Part shown: piece after piece, positions 1,381 through 64,000 of the stretch
How the letters are laid out: each line of letters begins with the position of its first letter
Numbering within the stretch: position 1 is the stretch's first letter
Assembly: GCA_035541435.1 (NCBI GenBank)
Contig: DATKNL010000010.1
Coordinates: 94,477 to 158,476, forward strand
DNA length: 64,000 nucleotides
Origin: Minisyncoccota bacterium
GTDB lineage: Bacteria; Patescibacteriota; Minisyncoccia; UBA6257; 2-01-FULL-56-20
Direction: 5' to 3'
Made by a program: the position numbers and the translations under genes
Notes under the pieces: generated by a model
What the model saw: the letters and a program-made list of their open reading frames with translations, nothing else
Database searches by the model: none
What the model was told of the DNA's origin: nothing

Positions 1381-1725
1381 TTACTTGCCTTGCTTATCGT
1401 TTATGCAAAACCGAGATTCCGGGTCTATTTCCAATATGGCCGCTTCAATTGATTTCCCGCATTTTTCACAAATTCCATAAACCCCCTTCGATATCTTATC
1501 CAAAGCCGAAGTTATATCAGAAAGGCGCTTTTTAAGATCTTCGGTTATGGCCATTTGATTGCCAACCTCTTCCGATATATCGGACTCTTCTTCGAAGCGG
1601 ACAACATCGACACCAAGGTCGACGGGTTTTTCATTCCTTTTTATTTCTTCAAGGATCATCACTCGCTCTTTTTCAAGCTTGCTTTTATATTCGCTTAATT
1701 TTTCATTTGTCATAATTGACACCAT
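1381..1725 (-). CDS. DksA/TraR family C4-type zinc-finger protein. The start is uncertain: the track ORF extends to 1812 through a repeat region.
   Basis: There is a coiled-coil N-terminus and a C-terminal motif CEKCGKSIEAAILEIDPESRFC (CxxC-x17-C). The size of about 110 aa fits DksA/TraR. The upstream part of the ORF reads through the TCCGGCAAA repeats and is probably not coding. Confidence 0.55.
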   Translation of the reverse strand: MVSIMTNEKLSEYKSKLEKERVMILEEIKRNEKPVDLGVDVVRFEEESDISEEVGNQMAITEDLKKRLSDITSALDKISKGVYGICEKCGKSIEAAILEIDPESRFCINDKQGK

Positions 1726-1738
1726 AAGATAAAAATTT

Positions 1739-1812
1739 TTATGCGTCAAATCCGGCAAATTATGACAATATTCCGGCAAAAAATCCGGCAAAAATATTCC
1801 GGCAAACTTCAT
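1739..1812. repeat. Four direct copies of (T)TCCGGCAAA spaced 13-15 bp apart in an AT-rich spacer.
   Basis: The sequence reads atccggcaaattatgacaatattccggcaaaaaatccggcaaaaatattccggcaaac. An inverted copy (ttgccgaa) lies at about 1832. Confidence 0.6.
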
Positions 1813-8583: not shown

Positions 8584-9201
8584 TTGCTAGAAATAGGGTA
8601 TTCAATGGACAGAATTTCACGACGGACGAAGGCCCTTGTGGCCTTCATTATTCTTGTAGCGGGCGGGTTTGCGATCACGGTCGTGTGGGGGAGCAGGAAT
8701 CAGGTTCCCGAGGCGTTCACCGACGCCCGCTTGCAGGGCGCCCTCATTTCCCAGACGATCGTAGGCATTTCGAATTCCTCGACCCAGGAGCTCGCCGAGA
8801 TCAACGCGCTTGACCGGAGCGGGAACTACGCCCAGGCGCTTTCCCTTACGACCGACCTCGTGAACCAGAGCCAGCAGCTCCGGGACCAGGGGGTCAAGCT
8901 GTCGAATCAGGTCGGGACGATGACGCAGAGCCTGTCGAGCATCAATTCGTTCTATGCGCAGCAGGCGGCGCTCGAGTCGATCTCGAGCCGGCTCGCGCTC
9001 ATCAACCAGCTCATAACCTATAGCAACGACCTTGACCGGCTGCTCGCCGTGCTTCAGGCGCGTTTTTCGGGAACCTATGAGCCCGCCGGGACCGTGCAGG
9101 GCATCGTTGACCAGATCAACACCGACGTGAACGCGATCAACAACTTCAACACGCAGGCGGAGCAGGCGATGGATCAGTTTGATAAGATAGTGAACAAGTA
9201 G
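8584..9201 (+). CDS. Hypothetical membrane-anchored protein. It has an N-terminal TM helix and a Q/N/S-rich coiled-coil extracytoplasmic region.
   Basis: The TM segment reads ALVAFIILVAGGFAITVVW. The alternative start is MDRISRR at 8605. Confidence 0.5.
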   Translation: MLEIGYSMDRISRRTKALVAFIILVAGGFAITVVWGSRNQVPEAFTDARLQGALISQTIVGISNSSTQELAEINALDRSGNYAQALSLTTDLVNQSQQLRDQGVKLSNQVGTMTQSLSSINSFYAQQAALESISSRLALINQLITYSNDLDRLLAVLQARFSGTYEPAGTVQGIVDQINTDVNAINNFNTQAEQAMDQFDKIVNK

Positions 9202-9272
9202 GGCGCGTAGCTCAACGGCAGAGCAGACGTCTTATACACGTCCGGTTCCTGGTTCGAATCCAGGCGCGCCCA
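9201..9272 (+). tRNA. tRNA-Ile with anticodon UAU, which decodes AUA.
   Basis: It folds as a canonical cloverleaf: acceptor GGGCGCG/CGCGCCC, D-stem GCTC/GAGC, anticodon stem GACGT/ACGTC, loop CTTATAC (U33, anticodon TAT, A37), T-arm CCTGG-TTCGAAT-CCAGG, discriminator A. Confidence 0.8.
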
Positions 9273-9299
9273 CATCGCGTTCCGCACCCCGCGCAATCA

Positions 9300-17188: not shown

Positions 17189-17321
17189 TTCGGTCGCCCT
17201 CGGAGGGAATCGCCCGCGACTCAAATGCTCGCCGCCGCTCGCATTTGGTCTGGGCACCGCCTCGCCGGAATTTTCTGCTGAAAATTCCGGCTCCGGCGTT
17301 CGATTCCCTCTAAGACAACAA

Positions 17322-17432
17322 ACAGCAGGAATATGCCTCGAAAGGGAGCCTCGGAGGCACGTAGGTGCCGAGAGCCTAGGCGCGTGTTCAGCAGAACACG
17401 ACGCCGTCCCTTTCGAGACATATTCCTGCTGT
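17322..17432 (-). repeat. Structured repeat element, copy D. It is inverted relative to copies A and B and directly abuts the tRNA-Arg 3' end.
   Basis: A 26-bp outer inverted repeat (acagcaggaatatgcctcgaaaggga ... tccctttcgagacatattcctgctgt, with 1 mismatch) encloses GTGTTCAGCAGAACAC. This is the reverse complement of the conserved inner hairpin of copies A and B. Confidence 0.65.
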
Positions 17433-17434
17433 TG

Positions 17435-17506
17435 CGCCCTCGGAGGGAATCGAACCCCCATAACCAGCTTAGAAGTCTGGCGTTCTATCCATTGAACTAC
17501 GAGGGC
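17435..17506 (-). tRNA. tRNA-Arg (UCU).
   Basis: On the minus strand it has acceptor GCCCTCG/CGAGGGC, T-arm GGGGG-TTCGATT-CCCTC and anticodon loop CTTCTAA. Positions 31-39 form an A·G mismatch, so the loop assignment is slightly uncertain. Confidence 0.7.
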
Positions 17507-29085: not shown

Positions 29086-29760
29086 TTACCTGCTGCGGCT
29101 AAGGCGCCGCGTTTCGAGCATGTCGTTGTGGTTCCGCATCCTGACCGTGAGTCGCGCGAGCGACCTTTTCATTCCTTCGAATTCGCTTTGGGCGCTTTTT
29201 TTCGCCTTTTCGAAATCGATGTGAACCAGGCTCGGATTTGTCGTGCCGTTCTGCGGATGATCGGGTATCTTGCACGCTGCGTGTTCCGCTTCGAGCTGGG
29301 CCTTGATGAACTTGAGCAGCTCGATTCTGACGCAGAACTCCTTTTTGATCTTATCGAGTTCCGCAGCAGGATCGCTTGCTTTCGTGATCCGTACCGCGGC
29401 GGCCGCATAGAAGTCCTTGATCCAGTCGCCATCGGAGGATTCAAGATGCTTCATGACCTCGGTCGTCTGCACGGCCGGTTTGTGTCCCAGTGCCAGCGCG
29501 ACAGCTTTGAGGAAGTCCGTAAAGATTTCCAGGCCGCCAGACAGGATGGGGTTACTTATGTCGTCTGCGGTGCCCTCGATCCTTCCCGAAAGAAGCCCTA
29601 TCGCACGACCGAATAGTCTCGATCGGGTCCAGTGCCCTTCGGGAATGAAGTTGCTGATATATTCAGCAAGCCTGTCGATCTCGGGATCCGCCAAGCCGAG
29701 CAACTCCAACGTCATCGTTCTCCGTCGGGAAAACTTCGGATCGATTTCCGGATTTGCCAT
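29086..29760 (-). CDS. Hypothetical cytoplasmic protein.
   Basis: It is a 224-aa ORF co-directional and tightly spaced with the two downstream membrane genes. No family was recognised. Confidence 0.4.
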   Translation of the reverse strand: MANPEIDPKFSRRRTMTLELLGLADPEIDRLAEYISNFIPEGHWTRSRLFGRAIGLLSGRIEGTADDISNPILSGGLEIFTDFLKAVALALGHKPAVQTTEVMKHLESSDGDWIKDFYAAAAVRITKASDPAAELDKIKKEFCVRIELLKFIKAQLEAEHAACKIPDHPQNGTTNPSLVHIDFEKAKKSAQSEFEGMKRSLARLTVRMRNHNDMLETRRLSRSR

Positions 29761-29855
29761 GATTTATCCCTCCACCATTATCAATGGTCTGGCAATATAA
29801 TATCATTAATTTTTATATTTGTCAAAATCACCGAAACCACTTAGAATGAAGGCGC

Positions 29856-29939
29856 GCTGGGGTGGTGAAATGGCAGACACGCAAGGTTTAGGACCTTGTG
29901 CCGCAAGGCGTGTGGGTTCAAGTCCCACCCCCAGCACCA
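29856..29939 (+). tRNA. tRNA-Leu (UAG), type II, with encoded CCA.
   Basis: It has acceptor GCTGGGG/CCCCAGC, anticodon loop TTTAGGA, a long variable arm TGCCGCAAGGCGT, T-arm GTGGG-TTCAAGT-CCCAC and ACCA. Confidence 0.85.
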
Positions 29940-29943
29940 GAGA

Positions 29944-30044
29944 TTTATTTTCCCCAAGAAAGGGTCGGCTCGTTTTCTGCTGAAAACGGCCTACGCCTCC
30001 GCGCCTTCGCGCGTCCGGCATACCCTTTCTTGGGGAAAATAAAT
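29944..30044 (+). repeat. Structured repeat element, copy A. It has a 23-bp perfect outer stem enclosing the conserved inner hairpin.
   Basis: The outer stem ATTTATTTTCCCCAAGAAAGGGT ... ACCCTTTCTTGGGGAAAATAAAT encloses TCGTTTTCTGCTGAAAAC ... CGCCTTCGCG. It starts 5 nt after the tRNA-Leu CCA. Confidence 0.7.
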
Positions 30045-30139
30045 ACTCTTCTGTTTTGGGTGGGGCTTGTACGAGTGGAGGGGGGTCGGGGAACTCGGCA
30101 CCGCTTTAAATGCCTGCAAAGAAGCGCTAAACTGAATGC

Positions 30140-31231
30140 ATGTCCATCATCGAGGACCGGCAGAAGATCAGACAGGAAGCTGAACGCGCGAAGCGGCAGA
30201 CGGAACAGCGCGGCGAGACGGTCGAGCAGGCGCCTGTTTTCGACCCGACCCTTCAGGAAATCCTGAGCAACCCGGAAGAGAGCCAGCTCTTCGGCTCCTA
30301 TCTTGAGCACGAAAAGAAGGGCGATCTCGGCGCGCGTCTTGCGAAGAACGAGCTTAAGCCCGAGGATCTCGAGGCGCTGGAATCGGACCGGGTGCAGTTC
30401 GTAAAGAGACTCGAGGCCGCAAAACGGATGGAGGGGCATTTTGCCGAAAGCGCGATCCAGAAGCTTGTCGATGCGTCGCCGCGCTTCAGGAAGATCGCAA
30501 ACGTTGTCGGCGTGAAGAACGTCAGCGAGGCATTCACCAAGCACCTCGTGGAGCTGTCGGTCGCGGAACCTCACGAATTCATGCAGATCGAGCGTGCCAT
30601 AACCCGGCTCATCGAGCGTCAGAAACGCGAAGAGCGGCTGCAGAAGGAGATCGTGGAGATCTGCCGAAAATATAAAATACCCAGCGTGCGCGAATATCTC
30701 AAGGCCGTCGACTCCGACGATCCCGAGGCGCTCAAGAAGCTGGTTGCGAAATCGATGGGTCGGCTTGAGCGATTCGTCAAAGGAAGGTCCGGAGAGCTTG
30801 AGGAAGAAGTGAAGGCGGCGAACAAGCGCGCGAAACTCGACAGCCTCGAAGCCTGGGCGAAGGACGATCTTGAGGAGGTGGGACGGCTGCTCAGCATCTC
30901 CCTCACGAACAACGACAGACTTCGGTCGACGTTGGTGTCGTTCTCAAAAAAAGAAGACGTTCTCGCGAAATCTCCCGTAGCGACCTTCAGGGATGTGCGA
31001 ATCGCCGAAGAGGCGTGGGAATCGCTTTCAGAAGAAGAGGTCGGCGAAGCGTGGGAAACCTATAAGAAAGAGCGTCCTGCGATGACCGACGTGAAAAAGG
31101 AAAAGGAAGGGTTCTGGAAGGTGTTTGCGCGAAGGAGCGGCTTCGGTGCAAAGAGCGGATTCTGGAGCGATGTCGCGACCATGACCGGCGCCGCGTCGCT
31201 TGCAGGTCGGTTCGAATCAAAACTTAACTGA
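30140..31231 (+). CDS. Hypothetical highly charged (E/K/R-rich) protein.
   Basis: It is a 363-aa ORF predicted to be helical with no recognisable family. Confidence 0.45.
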   Translation: MSIIEDRQKIRQEAERAKRQTEQRGETVEQAPVFDPTLQEILSNPEESQLFGSYLEHEKKGDLGARLAKNELKPEDLEALESDRVQFVKRLEAAKRMEGHFAESAIQKLVDASPRFRKIANVVGVKNVSEAFTKHLVELSVAEPHEFMQIERAITRLIERQKREERLQKEIVEICRKYKIPSVREYLKAVDSDDPEALKKLVAKSMGRLERFVKGRSGELEEEVKAANKRAKLDSLEAWAKDDLEEVGRLLSISLTNNDRLRSTLVSFSKKEDVLAKSPVATFRDVRIAEEAWESLSEEEVGEAWETYKKERPAMTDVKKEKEGFWKVFARRSGFGAKSGFWSDVATMTGAASLAGRFESKLN

Positions 31232-31239
31232 ACGCATCC

Positions 31240-31521
31240 ATGACGAACGACATCGTTGAAAGACTGCAGGAGGTCGTCGCGGCCGGCGACGAAGCCGCCG
31301 CGCGGGAGTTCGTGATGCAGCACCTTCACGAGTTTTCCGATGAGGACCGCCGCGCGATCATCGTGAGCCTGGCGACCGAAGCGCTATCCCGCGACGCTGA
31401 GGAGATCGACGGCCTGCTTTCGCTGCAGGAAAACGGCGTGAAGACGGTCCATGCGCTCGAGAAGATCCAGGAGAAGATCGACGACAAGCGCCGGCTGCTC
31501 GATATCAAGGAATCGATTTAG
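31240..31521 (+). CDS. Hypothetical small acidic protein.
   Basis: It is a 93-aa ORF lying 9 nt after the previous gene, and is likely co-transcribed with it. Confidence 0.4.
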   Translation: MTNDIVERLQEVVAAGDEAAAREFVMQHLHEFSDEDRRAIIVSLATEALSRDAEEIDGLLSLQENGVKTVHALEKIQEKIDDKRRLLDIKESI

Positions 31522-31540: not shown

Positions 31541-32464
31541 TCAGTCCTCCTTGCGCCGCGTGCCGTGGAACGACTTGTGCACGTCCCGCAGCTGCTTGTT
31601 CGTGAGGTGCGTATAGATCTGCGTGGTCGATATGTTCGAGTGGCCGAGCAGCTCCTGCACGGCGCGGATGTCGGCGCCGTTGATCAGGAGGTCGGTCGCG
31701 AAGCTGTGCCGCAGCTGGTGCGCATGGATGCGTTTCGGAATGCCCGCTTCGCGCGCGCGCCGCTCGACGACGCGTTCGACGGCCCGCGTCGTGATCGGGC
31801 CGATGACGTTGCCCATCCGGTCGAGGCTGACGAACAGCTTCTCTTCGGCGTCGGCGCGCCTCGCGAGATATCTCTGCAGCGCATCGCGCGCGGAATCCGA
31901 GATGAAGACGACGCGGAGCTTGTCGCCCTTCCCGCGCACGGTCGCCTCGCCGCGACGGATGTCGATGTAGCGCGAGAGCGAGCAGAGCTCGGCCAGGCGC
32001 AGTCCCGTCGAGAAGAAGAGCTCGAGGATCGCCTTGTCGCGCAGCGACCGCAGGTCGTTGCCCTTCGGGGCCGCAAGCAGCCGCTCGAGGTCGGCATATT
32101 CCAGAACGTCGATCTGCCGGGCCGGCGCCTTGGGCAGCTCGATCTTCTCGGCGGCGAGCGCCTTCACGTTGCGCTTCGCGAGATATTTGAGGAAGTTCCG
32201 AAGCGCGATGACGTAATAGCCCTGCGTCACCTTCTTGAGCTCGCGGCGCGCAAGGGCCTTGCGGAATTCGGTGACGAGCGACTCGGTGATGTCCTTGGCG
32301 GAGCGGATATCGGCGAACGTCAGGAACTCCTTGAGGTAGTGGCGATAGTTCTCGCTCGTCTTCGGCGAGCGATTCTTCTCGACTTCAAGGTAGTTGAGGT
32401 AGTCCTGAAAGAGCTGTTCGATTTCGCTTGATGCCATTCCCTTATTATACGCCATCTGTCGCAC
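31541..32464 (-). CDS. xerD: Tyrosine site-specific recombinase, XerC/XerD-like.
   Basis: It has an N-terminal SAM-like domain (LSENYRHYLKEFL-type) and a C-terminal catalytic domain with R...HQLRHSFATDLLINGADIRAVQELLGHSNISTTQIYTHL (R-H-R-Y). Confidence 0.8.
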   Translation of the reverse strand: MRQMAYNKGMASSEIEQLFQDYLNYLEVEKNRSPKTSENYRHYLKEFLTFADIRSAKDITESLVTEFRKALARRELKKVTQGYYVIALRNFLKYLAKRNVKALAAEKIELPKAPARQIDVLEYADLERLLAAPKGNDLRSLRDKAILELFFSTGLRLAELCSLSRYIDIRRGEATVRGKGDKLRVVFISDSARDALQRYLARRADAEEKLFVSLDRMGNVIGPITTRAVERVVERRAREAGIPKRIHAHQLRHSFATDLLINGADIRAVQELLGHSNISTTQIYTHLTNKQLRDVHKSFHGTRRKED

Positions 32465-35826: not shown

Positions 35827-36123
35827 ATGGTTGACATGCCGTCGCCGGATGCGATGCAGGTCGGCGCTCCGCCGCCTCCATCGGAAGTAAAGATCAGGAC
35901 GATGAAATCGGACCTCGCTGGGCTCGCCGCGAGCGGGGGAGGCATGCCGAAATTCGAAAGCGTGAAAGTGACCGGCTTGTCGATTGAAAAGGGCGTCGAT
36001 ACGCCCGAAGCCGTCCATCGCAGCAACGCGGTGACGATCGTCATTGTGACGATCGTGGCGGCGGTCATCCTGGGGATTTTGGGCTATGTGGCCTATAGGA
36101 TCGCAACGACCGGAAAGATATAA
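35827..36123 (+). CDS. Hypothetical small protein with a C-terminal TM helix.
   Basis: It is a 98-aa ORF with the C-terminal helix VTIVIVTIVAAVILGILGYVAY. Confidence 0.35.
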   Translation: MVDMPSPDAMQVGAPPPPSEVKIRTMKSDLAGLAASGGGMPKFESVKVTGLSIEKGVDTPEAVHRSNAVTIVIVTIVAAVILGILGYVAYRIATTGKI

Positions 36124-36126
36124 AAA

Positions 36127-36234
36127 GCGCGAACCATAGTGCCGAAAGGGACGGGTCGTTTTCTGCTGAAAACCCCTCTATCTCGCCGCCTTCGCGGCTC
36201 CGATAAGCCCTTTCGGCACTACGCTTTCGCGCCC
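36127..36234 (+). repeat. Structured repeat element, copy B, between the convergent pnp-side ORF and recA.
   Basis: The outer stem TAGTGCCGAAAGGG ... CCCTTTCGGCACTA encloses ACGGGTCGTTTTCTGCTGAAAAC ... CGCCGCCTTCGCGGCTCC. It shares the 18-nt identical inner core with copy A. Confidence 0.7.
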
Positions 36235-36239
36235 TTTTG

Positions 36240-37298
36240 TTATTCTTCCGCCGCGTCCGCTCCCCCTGTGACGGTGCCGTTTTTATAAGCCTCAACCACC
36301 TTTTTCTTGAGGGCTTCGAGAAGCTTCTTGTCCTCTTTCAGCTTCAGTCGGGCATTTTCAAAACCGGCGCCGAGGCGTTCGCCTTCGAACGAGAAGCTCG
36401 CCCCCGATTTCTTGACGACGCCGAAATTCACGCCGGCGTTGAGGACGTCGCCTTCGAACGAGATGCCTTCGTTGAACAGGATGTCGAATTCGGCGAACTT
36501 GAAGGGCGCCGCGACTTTGTTCTTCACGATCTTCGCCTTCACCCGGTTGCCGACCACCTGGTCGCCTTTCTTCACCTGGGCGATGCGGCGGATGTCGATG
36601 CGGACCGATGCGGCGAAGGGGAGCGCGCGGCCGCCCGGCGTCGTTTCGGGGTTGCCGAACATGATGCCGATCTTCATGCGGATTTGGTTGATGAAGATGA
36701 TCATGGTCTGGCTGTTTGCCGCCGCCGCCGTGAGCTTGCGGAGCGCCTGGCCCATCATGCGCGCCTGCCGGCCGACATGCTGCTCGCCCATTTCGCCTTC
36801 GAGCTCCGCCTGGGGCGTGAGCGCGGCGACGGAGTCGACGACGACGACCGAGATCATGCCCGACCGGACGAGGCTTTCGAGGATGTTGAGCGCCTCTTCG
36901 CCGCTATCGGGTTGCGAGATGAGGAGCTCGTTCACGTTCACGCCGAGCTTCTTCGCATAGTCGGGATCCATCGCGTGTTCCGCGTCGATGAACGCCGCCT
37001 TGCCGCCGAGCTTCTGGGCCTGTGCGACGACATTCAGGGCGAGCGTCGTCTTGCCGCTCGATTCCGGACCGAAGATCTCGACGATGCGGCCGCGCGGCAG
37101 CCCGCCGACGCCGAGGGCGAGGTCGAGGGAAAACGATCCGGTCGGCACGACGGCGACATCGACCTTCGTCACGTCACCGAGCTTCATGATGGCCCCCTCG
37201 CCGAACTTCTCTTGGAGCGAGGAGAGGAGCGCTTCGAGGTCCTTCGACTTGGTTTCTTTCGCCTGCTTCGCGGCGGATGATTTTTTGATGGGTGTCAT
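36240..37298 (-). CDS. recA: Recombinase RecA.
   Basis: It has a Walker A motif (GPESSGKTT), VVDSVAAL, and the L1/L2 loop context. Confidence 0.93.
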
Positions 37299-55861: not shown

Positions 55862-56338
55862 ATGGACCTCTTGGAATACGATGACGAGATGACGGGTGAG
55901 ATCATGGATGCGATAGAGAACCTGGCGCTCATGACCCAGCGCGAGTTCGTCGCTTTGCGTGCGGAGATGCAGGAATTCAAAGAGGACCTCAAGCTTGAGC
56001 TCAAGGCCGAGCTGAAGGCCGAGCTGCGGGCGGAGTTCAAGGCCGACATCAGGACCGAGCTGCGGCCGGAGCTCCTTGCCGAATTCCAGGCGGCCCTGAA
56101 TGCGCTGAAGGCCGAACTGCACGAGGAGCTCTATAGCGGATTCACAGTCCTGCGCAACAAGATTGATGGGGATATCGCGAGCCTGCGGCATGAGACGGCG
56201 CTCGGATTCGCGGGCATGAGGAGCGAGGCCGACGAGATTCGGCAGGAAATGAGGGTCGGATTTGCCGCCGTCAGCTCGATTCTGAGCGATCACGAATGCC
56301 GGACGGAACGGCTCGAGAAAAACACCGATTTTACCTGA
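55862..56338 (+). CDS. Hypothetical coiled-coil protein with tandem ELKAELRAEF-type heptad repeats.
   Basis: It is a 158-aa ORF reading LKLELKAELKAELRAEFKADIRTELRPELLAEFQAAL. Confidence 0.4.
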   Translation: MDLLEYDDEMTGEIMDAIENLALMTQREFVALRAEMQEFKEDLKLELKAELKAELRAEFKADIRTELRPELLAEFQAALNALKAELHEELYSGFTVLRNKIDGDIASLRHETALGFAGMRSEADEIRQEMRVGFAAVSSILSDHECRTERLEKNTDFT

Positions 56339-58465: not shown

Positions 58466-58668
58466 CTTTTTGCCGGGGTTCTCAGGACCGGTGTCGCGCC
58501 GTGCTCGGCGCGCACCTGTCTCGCGACCGCCTGCGCGGTGGCCGCCTTGACTCAGTGTTCCATCCGTATTAAGCTAGTCTCATCTCCGAACCGCGAGTAT
58601 AGCGGTCTTTTATTTATAAAGGACATTGCGGATCGCGGCTTCCTGGGGTATAATCAACTTCTCAAACC

Positions 58669-62070: not shown

Positions 62071-62157
62071 GGAGGCGTGGCCGAGTGGCTTAAGGCAGCA
62101 TCCTGCTAAGATGTTAGGGGAGAAATCCCCTCGAAGGTTCGAATCCTTCCGCCTCCG
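62071..62157 (+). tRNA. tRNA-Ser (GCU), type II.
   Basis: It has acceptor GGAGGCG/CGCCTCC, anticodon loop CTGCTAA, a long variable arm, T-arm GAAGG-TTCGAAT-CCTTC and discriminator G. Confidence 0.85.
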
Positions 62158-62287
62158 CAGACAAGGTAAAAGTATCGTAGCAACCGTCTTATATAGCTTC
62201 TTAGTGCGACCGCCCTACCCGAGGACAGGAGGACGGCCGAACTTTTTGATTTTTAATTTGTCTAATTCTGGGCTTTGATCCTTCGGG

Positions 62288-62920
62288 TTAAAATACCATC
62301 TTCGTATCTCCCCATCCTCCTTTCGGAGAGAACTCTCCGGCGATGGCACGCTCGTGTATTTCCCACGGCGTAGCGCCCGCTTCGCGTGCTTCCACTAATT
62401 TGTCGGGATCGACGGGTGTTATTTTCGGTTCCATCGTTTTAATATGCTCCGTCGCGGTCTCCCACGAGCTGTAATTGTTGACGAAGATCTCTACGTTGTT
62501 TCCGTCGGGATCCATCCAATAGAACGACGTGCCCACGCCGTGGTCGGCCGCCCAGACCGGCTTGATGCCTTCGTCCTTCAGGCGCACGTAGGTGCCCAAG
62601 AGGTCATCCAAGGTAGGAATTTCAAATGCCACGTGTTGCAGCCTGAGATGTTTTTGCTTGTCGGGGTCAGTTTTGACGCCCTTAACTTCGAAGAGGACGA
62701 TGCGGTGATCCACCTCGTCATTGCCCATAAACGTTGCGGCCGAAAAGGGTGAAAATTGACGCGCAACAAGCCCCACTTCCGAACGATGATTTACGTTCAT
62801 CCCTAATACCCTACGGTACCACTTTGCCATAGCATCCATGTTGGCGGTGACGAGCCCGTAATGCATCAGTTTGGGATGAGCGATGACTTCTGCGTTAAAT
62901 TTATTATTTTTTGTACTCAT
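62288..62920 (-). CDS. VOC family protein (glyoxalase/bleomycin-resistance/extradiol dioxygenase fold).
   Basis: It has two betaabetabetabeta modules (HYGLVTANMDAMAKWYRRVLG and HVAFEIPTLDDL). Confidence 0.65.
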   Translation of the reverse strand: MSTKNNKFNAEVIAHPKLMHYGLVTANMDAMAKWYRRVLGMNVNHRSEVGLVARQFSPFSAATFMGNDEVDHRIVLFEVKGVKTDPDKQKHLRLQHVAFEIPTLDDLLGTYVRLKDEGIKPVWAADHGVGTSFYWMDPDGNNVEIFVNNYSSWETATEHIKTMEPKITPVDPDKLVEAREAGATPWEIHERAIAGEFSPKGGWGDTKMVF

Positions 62921-62950
62921 TGGTTTATTTATATTTAATTAGTTTATATT

Positions 62951-62967
62951 ATCTTAGTTGCTAAGAT
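62951..62967. promoter_or_regulatory. Palindromic operator (7-3-7) in the divergent VOC/MarR intergenic region.
   Basis: ATCTTAG-TTG-CTAAGAT is a perfect inverted repeat in an AT-rich spacer. It matches the typical pseudo-palindromic architecture of a MarR binding site. Confidence 0.55.
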
Positions 62968-63005
62968 ATTTACATGGTAAGCGATGTCTGCTATCCTTGT
63001 CAAAT

Positions 63006-63470
63006 ATGGAAAAAGGCCGACTTTTACAGAATTTAGGACAGGCCATGATGGGCCTCAGCAACGAGCAGATCCTACTCCATCAGGCCGTTGCCGACGCGCT
63101 TGGCCTTAATATCACGGATCACAAATGTGTGAACCTTATTGCGCGGTTCAATCCCATGACCGCAGGTAAGCTTGCAGAACTCACCGGCCTCACCACGGGA
63201 GCAATCACAGGCGTCATCGACCGGCTCGAGAAAGGCGGCTATGCAAAGAGAATCCTCGACCCCAACGACAGGCGCGTGACCGTCGTCGAACTGACCAAGA
63301 AAGGAGAATCGATCAGCAAGATATTCTTGCCGCTGGTTAAGAAAATGGGAAAAGCGTTTGAAGCATTTAGCGACAAAGAACTGGCTGTTATTCTCAAGTT
63401 TGTAACTCTCGCCGCGGAAACTTCTCATGATGCGGCGAAGGAACTCAGGAAGAAAAGCGGAAAGAAATAA
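63006..63470 (+). CDS. MarR family transcriptional regulator.
   Basis: It has a winged-helix region (MTAGKLAELTGLTTGAITGVIDRLEKGGYAKRILDPNDRRVTVVELT). Confidence 0.8.
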   Translation: MEKGRLLQNLGQAMMGLSNEQILLHQAVADALGLNITDHKCVNLIARFNPMTAGKLAELTGLTTGAITGVIDRLEKGGYAKRILDPNDRRVTVVELTKKGESISKIFLPLVKKMGKAFEAFSDKELAVILKFVTLAAETSHDAAKELRKKSGKK

Positions 63471-63603
63471 GGAGAACTCTCCATGGGAGAATAAATCGGT
63501 AAGTTCGAATCCTCCCGCCGATATGGATAAATTAAAAAACTCAATAAAATCAATGGGATGGCACCAGGGCGACCGAGACGGTTCGAATACTGCCGCCCCC
63601 GCC

Positions 63604-63643
63604 ATGCTAAAAAAGACACTCATATGAGTGTCTGTTTTAGCAT
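63604..63643. terminator. Long perfect hairpin flanked by A-tracts and T-tracts (bidirectional terminator-like).
   Basis: The sequence atgctaaaa-aagacactca-ta-tgagtgtct-gttttagcat is a nested perfect inverted repeat. Confidence 0.6.
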
Positions 63644-64000
63644 TTGTTGAGATGAAGGATTCGAACAGCGGAGGGGGTCGGGGAACCGCGATCGGTTCCC
63701 CGTGTCGGAGAGCCGCTGAGAACCGAGGGTTCTGAGGGTGCGAGCATAGCGAACGATGTTCGATTCCCTTCCGCCTTCGCCAGCGGCGGATTTGGAAAAA
63801 CCAGGGCTTCGTCAATTAAAAAAATAGCTTCTACTTTTTTGTAGAAGCTATCCGTTCTTGCGACGGTTAACCCGTCAGAACAAAGTCAATCCGTACCATA
63901 CCCTGCCATCGCAGCAAGTTGATGGGGATCGCTGATGCGCGATCCAGCATCGAACCGGTCACGATATCGGTAGTCGAAATCGAACGATGTGCGGAGCACT

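Follow-up and report, generated by a model that had tools for sequence, protein, structure and literature searches.

What is a structured element of about 100 nt doing directly behind a tRNA gene, and why do elements of the same shape recur elsewhere on the same chromosome? The question is raised by a 64,000-nt stretch of a Minisyncoccota bacterium genome (contig DATKNL010000010.1, positions 94,477 to 158,476; hereafter, the window), which is made up of ordinary chromosomal genes, such as gyrA, gyrB, recA, pnp, nusA, nusG, and the gene for a Xer-type recombinase. The bacteria of the Candidate Phyla Radiation (CPR)/Patescibacteria have tiny genomes, and very little is known about their mobile DNA, terminators, and non-coding structures. 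We find that the element, denoted here Y, is a real, well-defined, and previously undescribed structured repeat family in Paceibacterota (Parcubacteria/CPR), and there is clear evidence that it undergoes gain and loss between related genomes. We give about an even chance to the interpretation that Y is the terminator hairpin module of small, non-autonomous, tRNA-integrating units in Paceibacterota that also occurs solo.

The window contains four copies of Y:

29940-30048, plus strand: Y copy A (folding energy -63.5 kcal/mol, z-score -11.5; covariance model 99.7 bits)
36127-36232, plus strand: Y copy B, solo (covariance model 91 bits)
17321-17433, minus strand: Y copy C (folding energy -78.2 kcal/mol; covariance model 86 bits)
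58473-58562, plus strand: Y copy D, degenerate (covariance model 24.9 bits, E about 1e-4)

The intact copies A, B, and C and the decayed copy D share a three-way-junction (Y-shaped) fold, which consists of a long, near-perfect, copy-specific outer stem with the conserved base GAA(A)GG(G)/CC(C)TT(T)C, hairpin 1, and hairpin 2, the latter with a CNNC loop (CTTC or CTAC in copies A-C) and then TCCG. In copy A, the core GAAAGGG...CCCTTTC spans 29958-30029 (GAAAGGG, 29958-29964; CCCTTTC, 30023-30029), the outer stem pairs 29943-29965 with 30022-30044 over 23 bp without a mismatch, hairpin 1 is GTTTTC-TGCT-GAAAAC (29972-29987), and hairpin 2 is CGCGC-CTTC-GCGCG; beyond a 1-nt bulge, GAG/CTC extends the stem to 29940-30048. 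The perfect stem and hairpin 1 had been described correctly in a first-pass annotation of this DNA, as had the same architecture in copy B, with the identical 18-nt TCGTTTTCTGCTGAAAAC shared by A and B, and an inverted third copy near 17322-17432, which is our copy C. Hairpin 1 of copy C, GTGTTC-TGCT-GAACAC, carries a compensatory change relative to copy A. Copy B occupies the spacer between a convergent 98-aa open reading frame (ORF; stop at 36123) and recA (stop at 36240), and its outermost stem, of 7 bp (GCGCGAA/TTCGCGC), has an A-tract on one side and a T-tract on the other. Copy D lies 8 nt 3' of the gyrB stop and retains both inner hairpins (loops TGCT and CTGC) with a decayed outer stem; an ordinary terminator hairpin follows downstream at about 58590-58615. 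The folding energies of copies A, B, and C range from -56 to -78 kcal/mol (z-scores -11.5 for A, -6.8, and -11.3). The window holds three instances of GAAAGGG-N50-80-CCCTTTC against 0.00 expected and six matches to the hairpin 1 16-mer with at most 3 mismatches against 0.41 expected. A filter-free covariance-model search of the window revealed no Y copies beyond A-D, that is, 4 copies in 64 kb, and Y density here is about one copy per 16-20 kb.

A covariance model built from eight copies detected 13 distinct copies of Y, 85-131 nt long, distributed over the window, three related genomes, and contigs of JGI metagenomes, with E-values from 1e-15 to 1e-27 for the strong members; the loci of the relatives were fetched via RecA and GyrA (loci outside the window are referred to by L numbers). 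In the JGI metagenome scan, true Y members were found on contigs L005, L006 (also Parcubacteria), L014 (= L017), and L019 (= L023), with a GC content of 38-52%, the range for all carriers being 38-60%. The recurrence beyond the window on which the first-pass annotation had counted is thus borne out. A scan of a one-genome-per-species collection returned as its sole match a chance one in Actinomadura, without the 3' half, and scans of viral contigs (with three patterns) and plasmids found no Y. That low-complexity hairpins merely resemble each other by chance here, or that the assembly is at fault, is a negligible prospect and is already refuted: nothing favors it except the A/T-rich character of some outer stems, whereas zero matches are expected by chance, the E-values are as given above, and assemblies made independently from different samples contain identical copies (L025/L026/L031; L014/L017), which excludes an assembly artefact.

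The fold is strongly supported by covariation. In 11 aligned copies, 93.7% of the cells are paired and 27 of the 33 pairs display double changes; none of 500 shuffles reached the observed pairing and covariation, and slid-partner controls are only 33-54% paired. The TGCT loop is invariant across these 11 copies, and a further copy, at the L031 tRNA-Arg, has TACT. The outer stems of the 13 copies are mutually unalignable, with only the GAA(A)GG(G)/CC(C)TT(T)C base in common, and stems of 20-30 bp are perfect though unalignable even between orthologous copies. Watson-Crick pairs account for 319 pairing cells, G-U for 10, and A-C for 6; G-U is no commoner than A-C (10 vs 6, which is not decisive on RNA- versus DNA-level selection), and both are nearly absent. 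The selection on structure proposed in the first-pass annotation is real, but the nearly pure Watson-Crick pairing fits a DNA palindrome at least as well as an RNA. Because the perfect stems are unalignable and G-U intermediates are rare, slow compensatory RNA evolution explains them poorly; variant replacement, or palindrome correction by template switching at the DNA level, would probably explain them better. A comparison of duplicate strains for compensatory polymorphisms found Y identical in those duplicates.

In keeping with the first-pass annotation, no Rfam family matches Y. At the gathering threshold, an Rfam search of the window passed nine tRNAs only, with no family over Y; in permissive mode, the best match over Y had E = 1.3, and the permissive matches over Y and the adjacent module X (described below) in L025 were spurious hairpins of the microRNA type, far below threshold. 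A hammerhead or other ribozyme, considered because of the GAAA and CUGCUGA strings, was rejected, given that helices or loops, and not the junction, contain these strings and that Rfam gives no match. A tRNA-like or armless-tRNA identity of the 72-nt core was rejected as well, ARAGORN being negative except for one relaxed-threshold match on the wrong strand. Literature searches covering the repeats of CPR bacteria, miniature elements associated with tRNAs, and palindromic terminators with branches found no description of the Y family.

What, then, ties Y to tRNA genes? Six copies are tRNA-linked. They start 0-3 nt past the tRNA end, all in the same orientation (6/6), and each is followed by a U-rich tract of 7-10 nt and then, in every case (6/6), by an antisense copy, 10-15 nt long, of the T-loop and T-stem of that same tRNA (GAGGGAATCGAAC at tRNA-Arg, GGTGGGACTTGAAC at tRNA-Leu(tag), GGGAGGGAATCGAAC at tRNA-Leu(caa)), such that the antisense fragment corresponds to each particular tRNA: Arg, Leu-tag, Leu-caa, or Ser. 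In three complete units, this fragment is followed by a second structured module, X, and then by an 18-20-nt direct repeat of the tRNA 3' end; in the other three, X and the direct repeat are cut off, decayed, or missing. Module X displays unpaired conserved motifs (GGGTCGG, CCGTGTNGGAG, GAACCGAGGGTTC, AAAGCGCAG, and CGAGCAGTGA) with covarying hairpins in between; its identification as a fragment of transfer-messenger RNA, RNase P, or signal recognition particle RNA found no ARAGORN or Rfam support and was dismissed. The identity of the direct repeats starts directly past the GTTC of the T-loop and extends over 18 nt at the window tRNA-Arg, 18 nt at the L025 tRNA-Leu(tag), and 20 nt at the L014 tRNA-Leu(caa); behind the L014 tRNA-Ser, three direct repeats stand in tandem, with small cargo genes between them.

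The tRNA-Arg unit of the window is complete (17193-17433) and, beyond copy C, comprises the following features:

17434-17506, minus strand: tRNA-Arg(tct), intact, CCA not encoded (ARAGORN, Rfam)
17193-17320, minus strand: remainder of the unit (spacer, antisense T-arm, X, direct repeat)
17311-17320, minus strand: spacer TGTTGTCTTA
17298-17310, minus strand: antisense T-arm GAGGGAATCGAAC
17213-17297, minus strand: module X, two hairpins
17195-17212, minus strand: 18-nt direct repeat of the tRNA-Arg 3' end, CGATTCCCTCCGAGGGCG

The tRNA-Leu unit, which contains copy A, is shorter:

29856-29939, plus strand: tRNA-Leu(tag), CCA encoded (ARAGORN, Rfam)
30049-30057, plus strand: U-rich spacer TTCTGTTTT
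30058-30072, plus strand: antisense T-arm GGGTGGGGCTTGTAC
30073-30094, plus strand: first 22 nt of X, GAGTGGAGGGGGGTCGGGGAAC, by comparison with the complete L025 tRNA-Leu unit

This unit ends 22 nt into X (30094), and a search of the window for the tRNA 3'-end direct repeat found none remaining. A promoter scan placed a promoter-like site at 29819-29847, upstream of tRNA-Leu(tag). The first base of the copy A hairpin (29940) is the base directly 3' of the encoded CCA, and the first base of copy C is directly 3' of the tRNA-Arg(tct) end; the distances of 5 nt (tRNA-Leu) and 2 nt (tRNA-Arg) in the first-pass annotation need correction, the extended stems starting 0-1 nt past the tRNA ends. The supposed partial copy at 17262-17300 is actually a hairpin, CCGGAATTTTC-TGCT-GAAAATTCCGG (17265-17290), inside module X, and not a truncated Y; hairpin 1 is the only part of the covariance model that finds a match there (15.8 bits). 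As to the proposed targeting of tRNA 3' ends, half of the known copies do abut them, but the link comes from the composite insertion, not from Y itself.

A further unit, at 63580-63782 on the plus strand, has no Y; a plain hairpin takes its position in an otherwise identical architecture, at the end of a 1.4-kb islet of low GC content (about 50%) 3' of tRNA-Ser(gct):

62071-62158, plus strand: tRNA-Ser(gct) (ARAGORN)
62288-62920, minus strand: glyoxalase-family gene in the islet
62958-63470, plus strand: MarR gene in the islet
63580-63604, plus strand: tRNA-3'-end-like segment
63604-63643, plus strand: plain palindromic hairpin, 19-20 bp
63654-63666, plus strand: antisense T-arm of tRNA-Ser, GAAGGATTCGAAC, after a spacer
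63667-63758, plus strand: module X of the tRNA-Ser unit
63759-63782, plus strand: tRNA-3'-like repeat, terminal CGCCA

The islet (62159-63790) contains three or more fragments resembling a tRNA 3' end (near 63497, at 63580-63604, and at 63759-63782) and looks like the product of successive integrations at one tRNA. In L014 (9440-12720, minus strand), three X modules, each ending in a tRNA-Ser 3'-end repeat, follow tRNA-Ser(gct), with two NUDIX genes, one helix-turn-helix (HTH) gene, and membrane-protein genes between them and plain hairpins replacing Y, an arrangement that is cassette-array-like; the examined part of this contig contains no integrase. Elsewhere in L014 (2766-2855, minus strand), a hairpin starts 2 nt past tRNA-Cys; it is perfect over 30 bp, has a plain loop of 12 nt, and lacks the Y core, which suggests that very long perfect hairpins after tRNAs are a wider habit of the lineage. 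In a survey of the tRNA genes of the examined loci, hairpins spanning more than 100 nt and starting 0-3 nt past the tRNA were found at filled sites only; the remaining tRNAs of the window have ordinary terminators or nothing downstream.

Are these units inserted, or have they evolved in place? Syntenic loci of four related genomes were compared, with GyrA 87-88% identical to that of the window and, in three of the four, RecA 87-92% identical; the window genome and the L025/L026 genome come from one and the same sample. Y proved polymorphic between relatives, as the first-pass annotation had envisaged for a mobile element, being present or absent at five orthologous spacers: those of tRNA-Leu(tag) and tRNA-Arg(tct), the recA 3' spacer, and two others. 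The spacer between recA and the small ORF measures 116 nt with copy B in the window, 60 nt with a plain bidirectional terminator in L025, 50 nt in L027, and 0 nt in L028, the latter two without Y. The tRNA-Leu(tag) site is filled in the window and L025 and empty in L027 and L028, where the tRNA runs directly into unrelated sequence; the tRNA-Arg(tct) site is filled in the window and L031 and empty in L032, L033, and L034. At the latter site, the end of a convergent SdpI-family gene aligns on the far side in L031, L032, and L034, defining a clean indel of about 190 nt. Copies confined to a single genome are one in L031, where the neighbors are the S1 gene and a metallo-beta-lactamase-fold gene, and one in L028, near clpB. 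The presence pattern does not track GyrA similarity, which is 90.5% between L031 and the empty L032 and 92.6% between L033 and L034, with the window equidistant from all. Given this pairing of L031 with an empty relative and the equidistance of the window, the filled state at tRNA-Arg requires two gains or two precise losses. Taken together, the direct repeats, intact tRNAs, empty sites, and tandem accumulation make, at the level of sequence comparison, a well-supported footprint of what appears to be site-specific integration in the T-loop.

We therefore return to the interpretation of Y as the terminator module of such units. Units of about 200-300 bp would insert site-specifically in the T-loop of a tRNA gene, and each would bring its own tRNA 3' segment, so that the tRNA gene would stay intact. 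Y, placed directly after the restored tRNA and followed by the U-rich tract, would serve as a factor-independent terminator and insulator of the tRNA gene, and the tRNA transcript would stop before the antisense T-arm copy; the downstream remainder would consist of the antisense T-arm, X, and the displaced tRNA 3' end as the direct repeat. Solo copies in intergenic spacers, mostly at gene 3' ends as between the 98-aa ORF and recA, may also terminate transcription, in that spacer bidirectionally. Because Y stands where the restored tRNA needs a terminator, with a U-rich tail and the same orientation in 6/6 cases, and tRNA-Leu has a promoter-like site of its own, tRNA termination is the most economical predicted function. 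A terminator, one of the alternatives named in the first-pass annotation, is a plausible reading. The units are too small to encode an enzyme of their own and no integrase or transposase was found, suggesting that they are moved in trans or are relics; the process presumably involves a trans-acting recombinase, termination, and upkeep of the perfect copy-specific stems.

Transcription termination is also the premise of a competing explanation, which we consider rather unlikely, namely, that Y is an elaborate host-encoded intrinsic terminator or 3'-untranslated region (UTR) RNA that evolves in place, with selection acting on its RNA structure, and is immobile, its similarity across sites stemming from old duplications. 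In its favor, 10 of the 12 copies with interpretable context are at a gene 3' end in sense orientation, and a U-rich or A-T tract accompanies the six tRNA-linked copies (6/6), B, and L005, in the last two cases with A/T tracts on both sides. The strong covariation of the stems and the ordinary terminator that stands in the place of copy B in L025 point in the same direction. A consensus terminator scanner admits loops of up to 8 nt only and hence is blind to Y. An immobile terminator is, however, difficult to reconcile with presence and absence at five orthologous spacers that do not follow GyrA similarity, with the tRNA 3'-end direct repeats that bound the units, and with perfect 20-30-bp unalignable stems of nearly pure Watson-Crick pairing. 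Furthermore, the antisense strands of A and B fold more stably than the sense strands, with no consistent strand preference across copies; of the other copies, one has divergent genes as neighbors and another is antisense.

Exceptions in position and in the U-tract also count against termination as the role of Y within integrating units: the copy at L031 8822-8913 lies between divergent genes, the one at L028 282-371 is antisense to its neighbors, and D, L006, and L023 have no U-tract. We read the solo copies D, L006, and L023 and the divergent and antisense ones as insertions or decaying copies, whereas a bidirectional terminator fits solo copy B, which has an A-tract at one end, a T-tract at the other, and convergent genes on its two sides. 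Several other observations also weigh against the proposed integrating units. Neither the units themselves nor L014 nor the 9 kb adjoining the window on its right yielded an integrase or transposase. The only nearby recombinase (31541-32464) is of the Xer type, is syntenic in relatives with empty sites, and is apparently housekeeping. The flanks of tRNA-Leu are too diverged for alignment, so the clean comparison of filled and empty states comes from the tRNA-Arg site only, and the related sequence examined amounts to about 300 kb only. Moreover, the antisense T-arm copy is not accounted for by ordinary attP x attB recombination, and the conserved inner junction exceeds the requirements of a terminator. 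Because these last two features go beyond a terminator role, we retain two rivals, namely, an RNA that is processed or bound by protein and a recombination site of folded single-stranded DNA.

The first of these holds that Y is a discrete functional RNA, either a 3' trailer released by RNase III or a protein platform, in which the UGCU and CNNC loops and the junction are recognized. Conservation of unpaired nucleotides together with covarying stems is the usual signature of a functional RNA, and Y displays it; its orientation relative to the upstream tRNA is fixed (6/6), perfect duplexes of at least 20 bp are established RNase III substrates, and the core is strand-asymmetric, scoring 90-100 bits in the sense direction against 15-19 bits in antisense under the covariance model. 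Conversely, there is no Rfam match, ARAGORN does not see a tRNA-like fold, G-U is not enriched over A-C, and the units with plain hairpins (window 63604-63643, L014 tRNA-Ser, and tRNA-Cys) imply that the core is dispensable there. On balance, we regard a discrete non-coding RNA as improbable.

The second rival, which seems to us quite improbable, is that Y and X are folded single-stranded-DNA recombination sites, comparable to integron attC or the attP of CTX phage, on which a Xer-type recombinase acts; the sense T-arm segment and its antisense copy would pair across Y or X, mimicking a duplex T-arm. The succession of site, forked hairpin of about 100 nt, inverted site, remainder, and hybrid site is the topology of single-strand hairpin integration, and the tRNA specificity of the antisense fragment (Arg, Leu-tag, Leu-caa, Ser), the nearly all-Watson-Crick pairing, and the small cargo genes split by units and arranged in tandem after tRNA-Ser are all compatible with it. 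The sole recombinase in the neighborhood is of the Xer type, with 233 bits against a cut-off of 220 in the NCBIfam XerA-type 'tyrosine recombinase/integron integrase' model. Xer-like tyrosine recombinases process attC and CTX attP, which sit where a cassette or element has its 3' end; like Y, attC and CTX attP(+) are defined by their fold, span 60-150 nt, have copy-specific stems, and sometimes have branched tips. Unlike attC, Y and the units show no RYYYAAC/GTTRRRY core on reading the sequences, no extrahelical-base pattern, and no IntI, attI, or dif-like site; the T-loop-derived TTCGAAC/GTTCGAA of the units misfits the attC consensus, the feet are copy-specific, and no integron platform was seen. 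The likeness to these sites is one of architecture only. In addition, relatives whose sites are empty have the Xer gene in synteny as well, units lie on both strands under a uniformly positive GC skew, which argues against strict dependence on the lagging strand, and no T-arm fragments accompany the solo Y copies. By extension, and with equally slight probability, CPR bacteria may possess a tRNA-anchored cassette system in which units and small genes (NUDIX, MarR, glyoxalase, HTH) are inserted successively at T-loops; it is just as doubtful that, in such a system, the Xer-type recombinase would recognize a hairpin of antisense and sense T-arm that mimics the target.

How do Y and the putative integrating units compare with known mobile and palindromic elements? 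The first-pass annotation had suggested an element akin to MITEs, which are miniature transposable elements with inverted repeats. Like a MITE, Y is small, non-coding, multi-copy, and insertion-polymorphic (85-131 nt, 13 copies, polymorphic orthologous sites), but shared terminal inverted repeats are absent, the inverted repeats differing from copy to copy. No direct repeats are present at the two feet of the hairpin at any copy, which leaves the hairpin without target-site duplications, and the 18-20-nt repeats bound the composite unit; no parent insertion sequence was found in the window or the loci examined. Hence Y is not a classical MITE. The Correia/NEMIS elements of Neisseria and the ERIC/IRU elements of enterobacteria resemble Y in being non-coding, about 100-150 nt long, capable of forming long hairpins, and dispersed in intergenic regions. 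Correia/NEMIS and ERIC elements often lie in 3' UTRs, vary in presence among strains, and can terminate transcription or be targets of RNase III. In contrast to Y, Correia and ERIC elements carry target-site duplications as well as terminal inverted repeats that do not vary between copies; Y differs by its copy-specific outer stem, its conservation limited to stem base and junction, and its branched core.

The REP/BIME palindromes, which are associated with RAYT transposases, share with Y the extragenic position at gene ends, an identity based on structure, and a role in termination or mRNA stability. REPs are imperfect palindromes of 20-40 nt with a conserved 5' tetranucleotide, hundreds of copies, and a cognate Y1 transposase, whereas Y is three times longer, branched, and without the conserved 5' tetranucleotide; no Y1 (RAYT) transposase was present among the Pfam-labelled genes of the loci examined. 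Y thus behaves like the Correia/NEMIS, ERIC, and REP palindromes but belongs to none of these families. The tRNA islands and prophages integrated by tyrosine integrases and their derivatives without an integrase, the cis-mobilisable elements (CIMEs), resemble the units in leaving the tRNA intact, in a repeat that starts at the T-loop, in tandem accumulation, and in the existence of empty sites. The units have the bounding direct repeat and empty sites in relatives expected of tRNA-integrative elements, and differ from CIMEs in their size of only 200-300 bp, the absence of an internal integrase, the two structured modules, and the antisense T-arm copy of the target, which to our knowledge is not a feature of classical attP sites. 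A search beside the units for an autonomous parent (integrase, IS110, TnpB, or Y1 transposase), covering the window, L014, and the 9 kb past the right end of the window, detected none. Analogies to bridge RNA and omega-RNA were set aside because there is no protein partner near the units.

The window has several other distinctive features. Three ORFs of 224, 363, and 93 aa flank tRNA-Leu (29086-29760; 30140-31521). None of them matches Pfam or NCBIfam or recurs in the syntenic loci of the four relatives, and the surroundings of this tRNA are variable; the product of 363 aa is highly charged and coiled-coil-looking. The anticodon of tRNA-Ile (9201-9273) is TAT (UAU), which is unusual in bacteria, most of which decode AUA by a modified CAU tRNA. 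Just upstream of nusA, in the spacer of two divergent genes, some seven palindromes of 18 bp (ATGTTTAGCGCTAAACAT and variants) follow each other over 1866-2182 at a spacing of exactly 36 nt. One of the two genes (1381-1812, minus strand) encodes a zinc-finger protein of the DksA/TraR type, the other (2183-2560) a nuclease-like YraN/UPF0102 protein. The palindromes could be an operator or iteron array, and a TIGR array was rejected because no Nop-domain (Tas) protein is nearby. A coding repeat with a 12-nt period (GAGCTGAAGGCC and variants), specifying an ELKA-type tetrapeptide, is found at 55985-56131 within a 158-aa ORF (55862-56338). Among the Paceibacterota homologues of GyrA, P0168, P0199, and P0226 are 1100-1270 aa long and contain intein domains (PF14890, PF14528); the GyrA of the window has none.

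For the biology of these bacteria, the covariance model of Y and the motifs of X provide concrete searchable markers, and the family points to a gain-and-loss process that hits tRNA genes without destroying them and is tied to small islets of accessory genes. The most promising aspects are the unexplained mimicry of the T-arm and the cassette-like arrays behind tRNA-Ser. If a recombinase indeed acts on folded DNA that imitates a T-arm, this would be a new way to program integration sites; if the units are mobile terminators only, they would still explain long perfect palindromes that complicate the assembly and annotation of these genomes.

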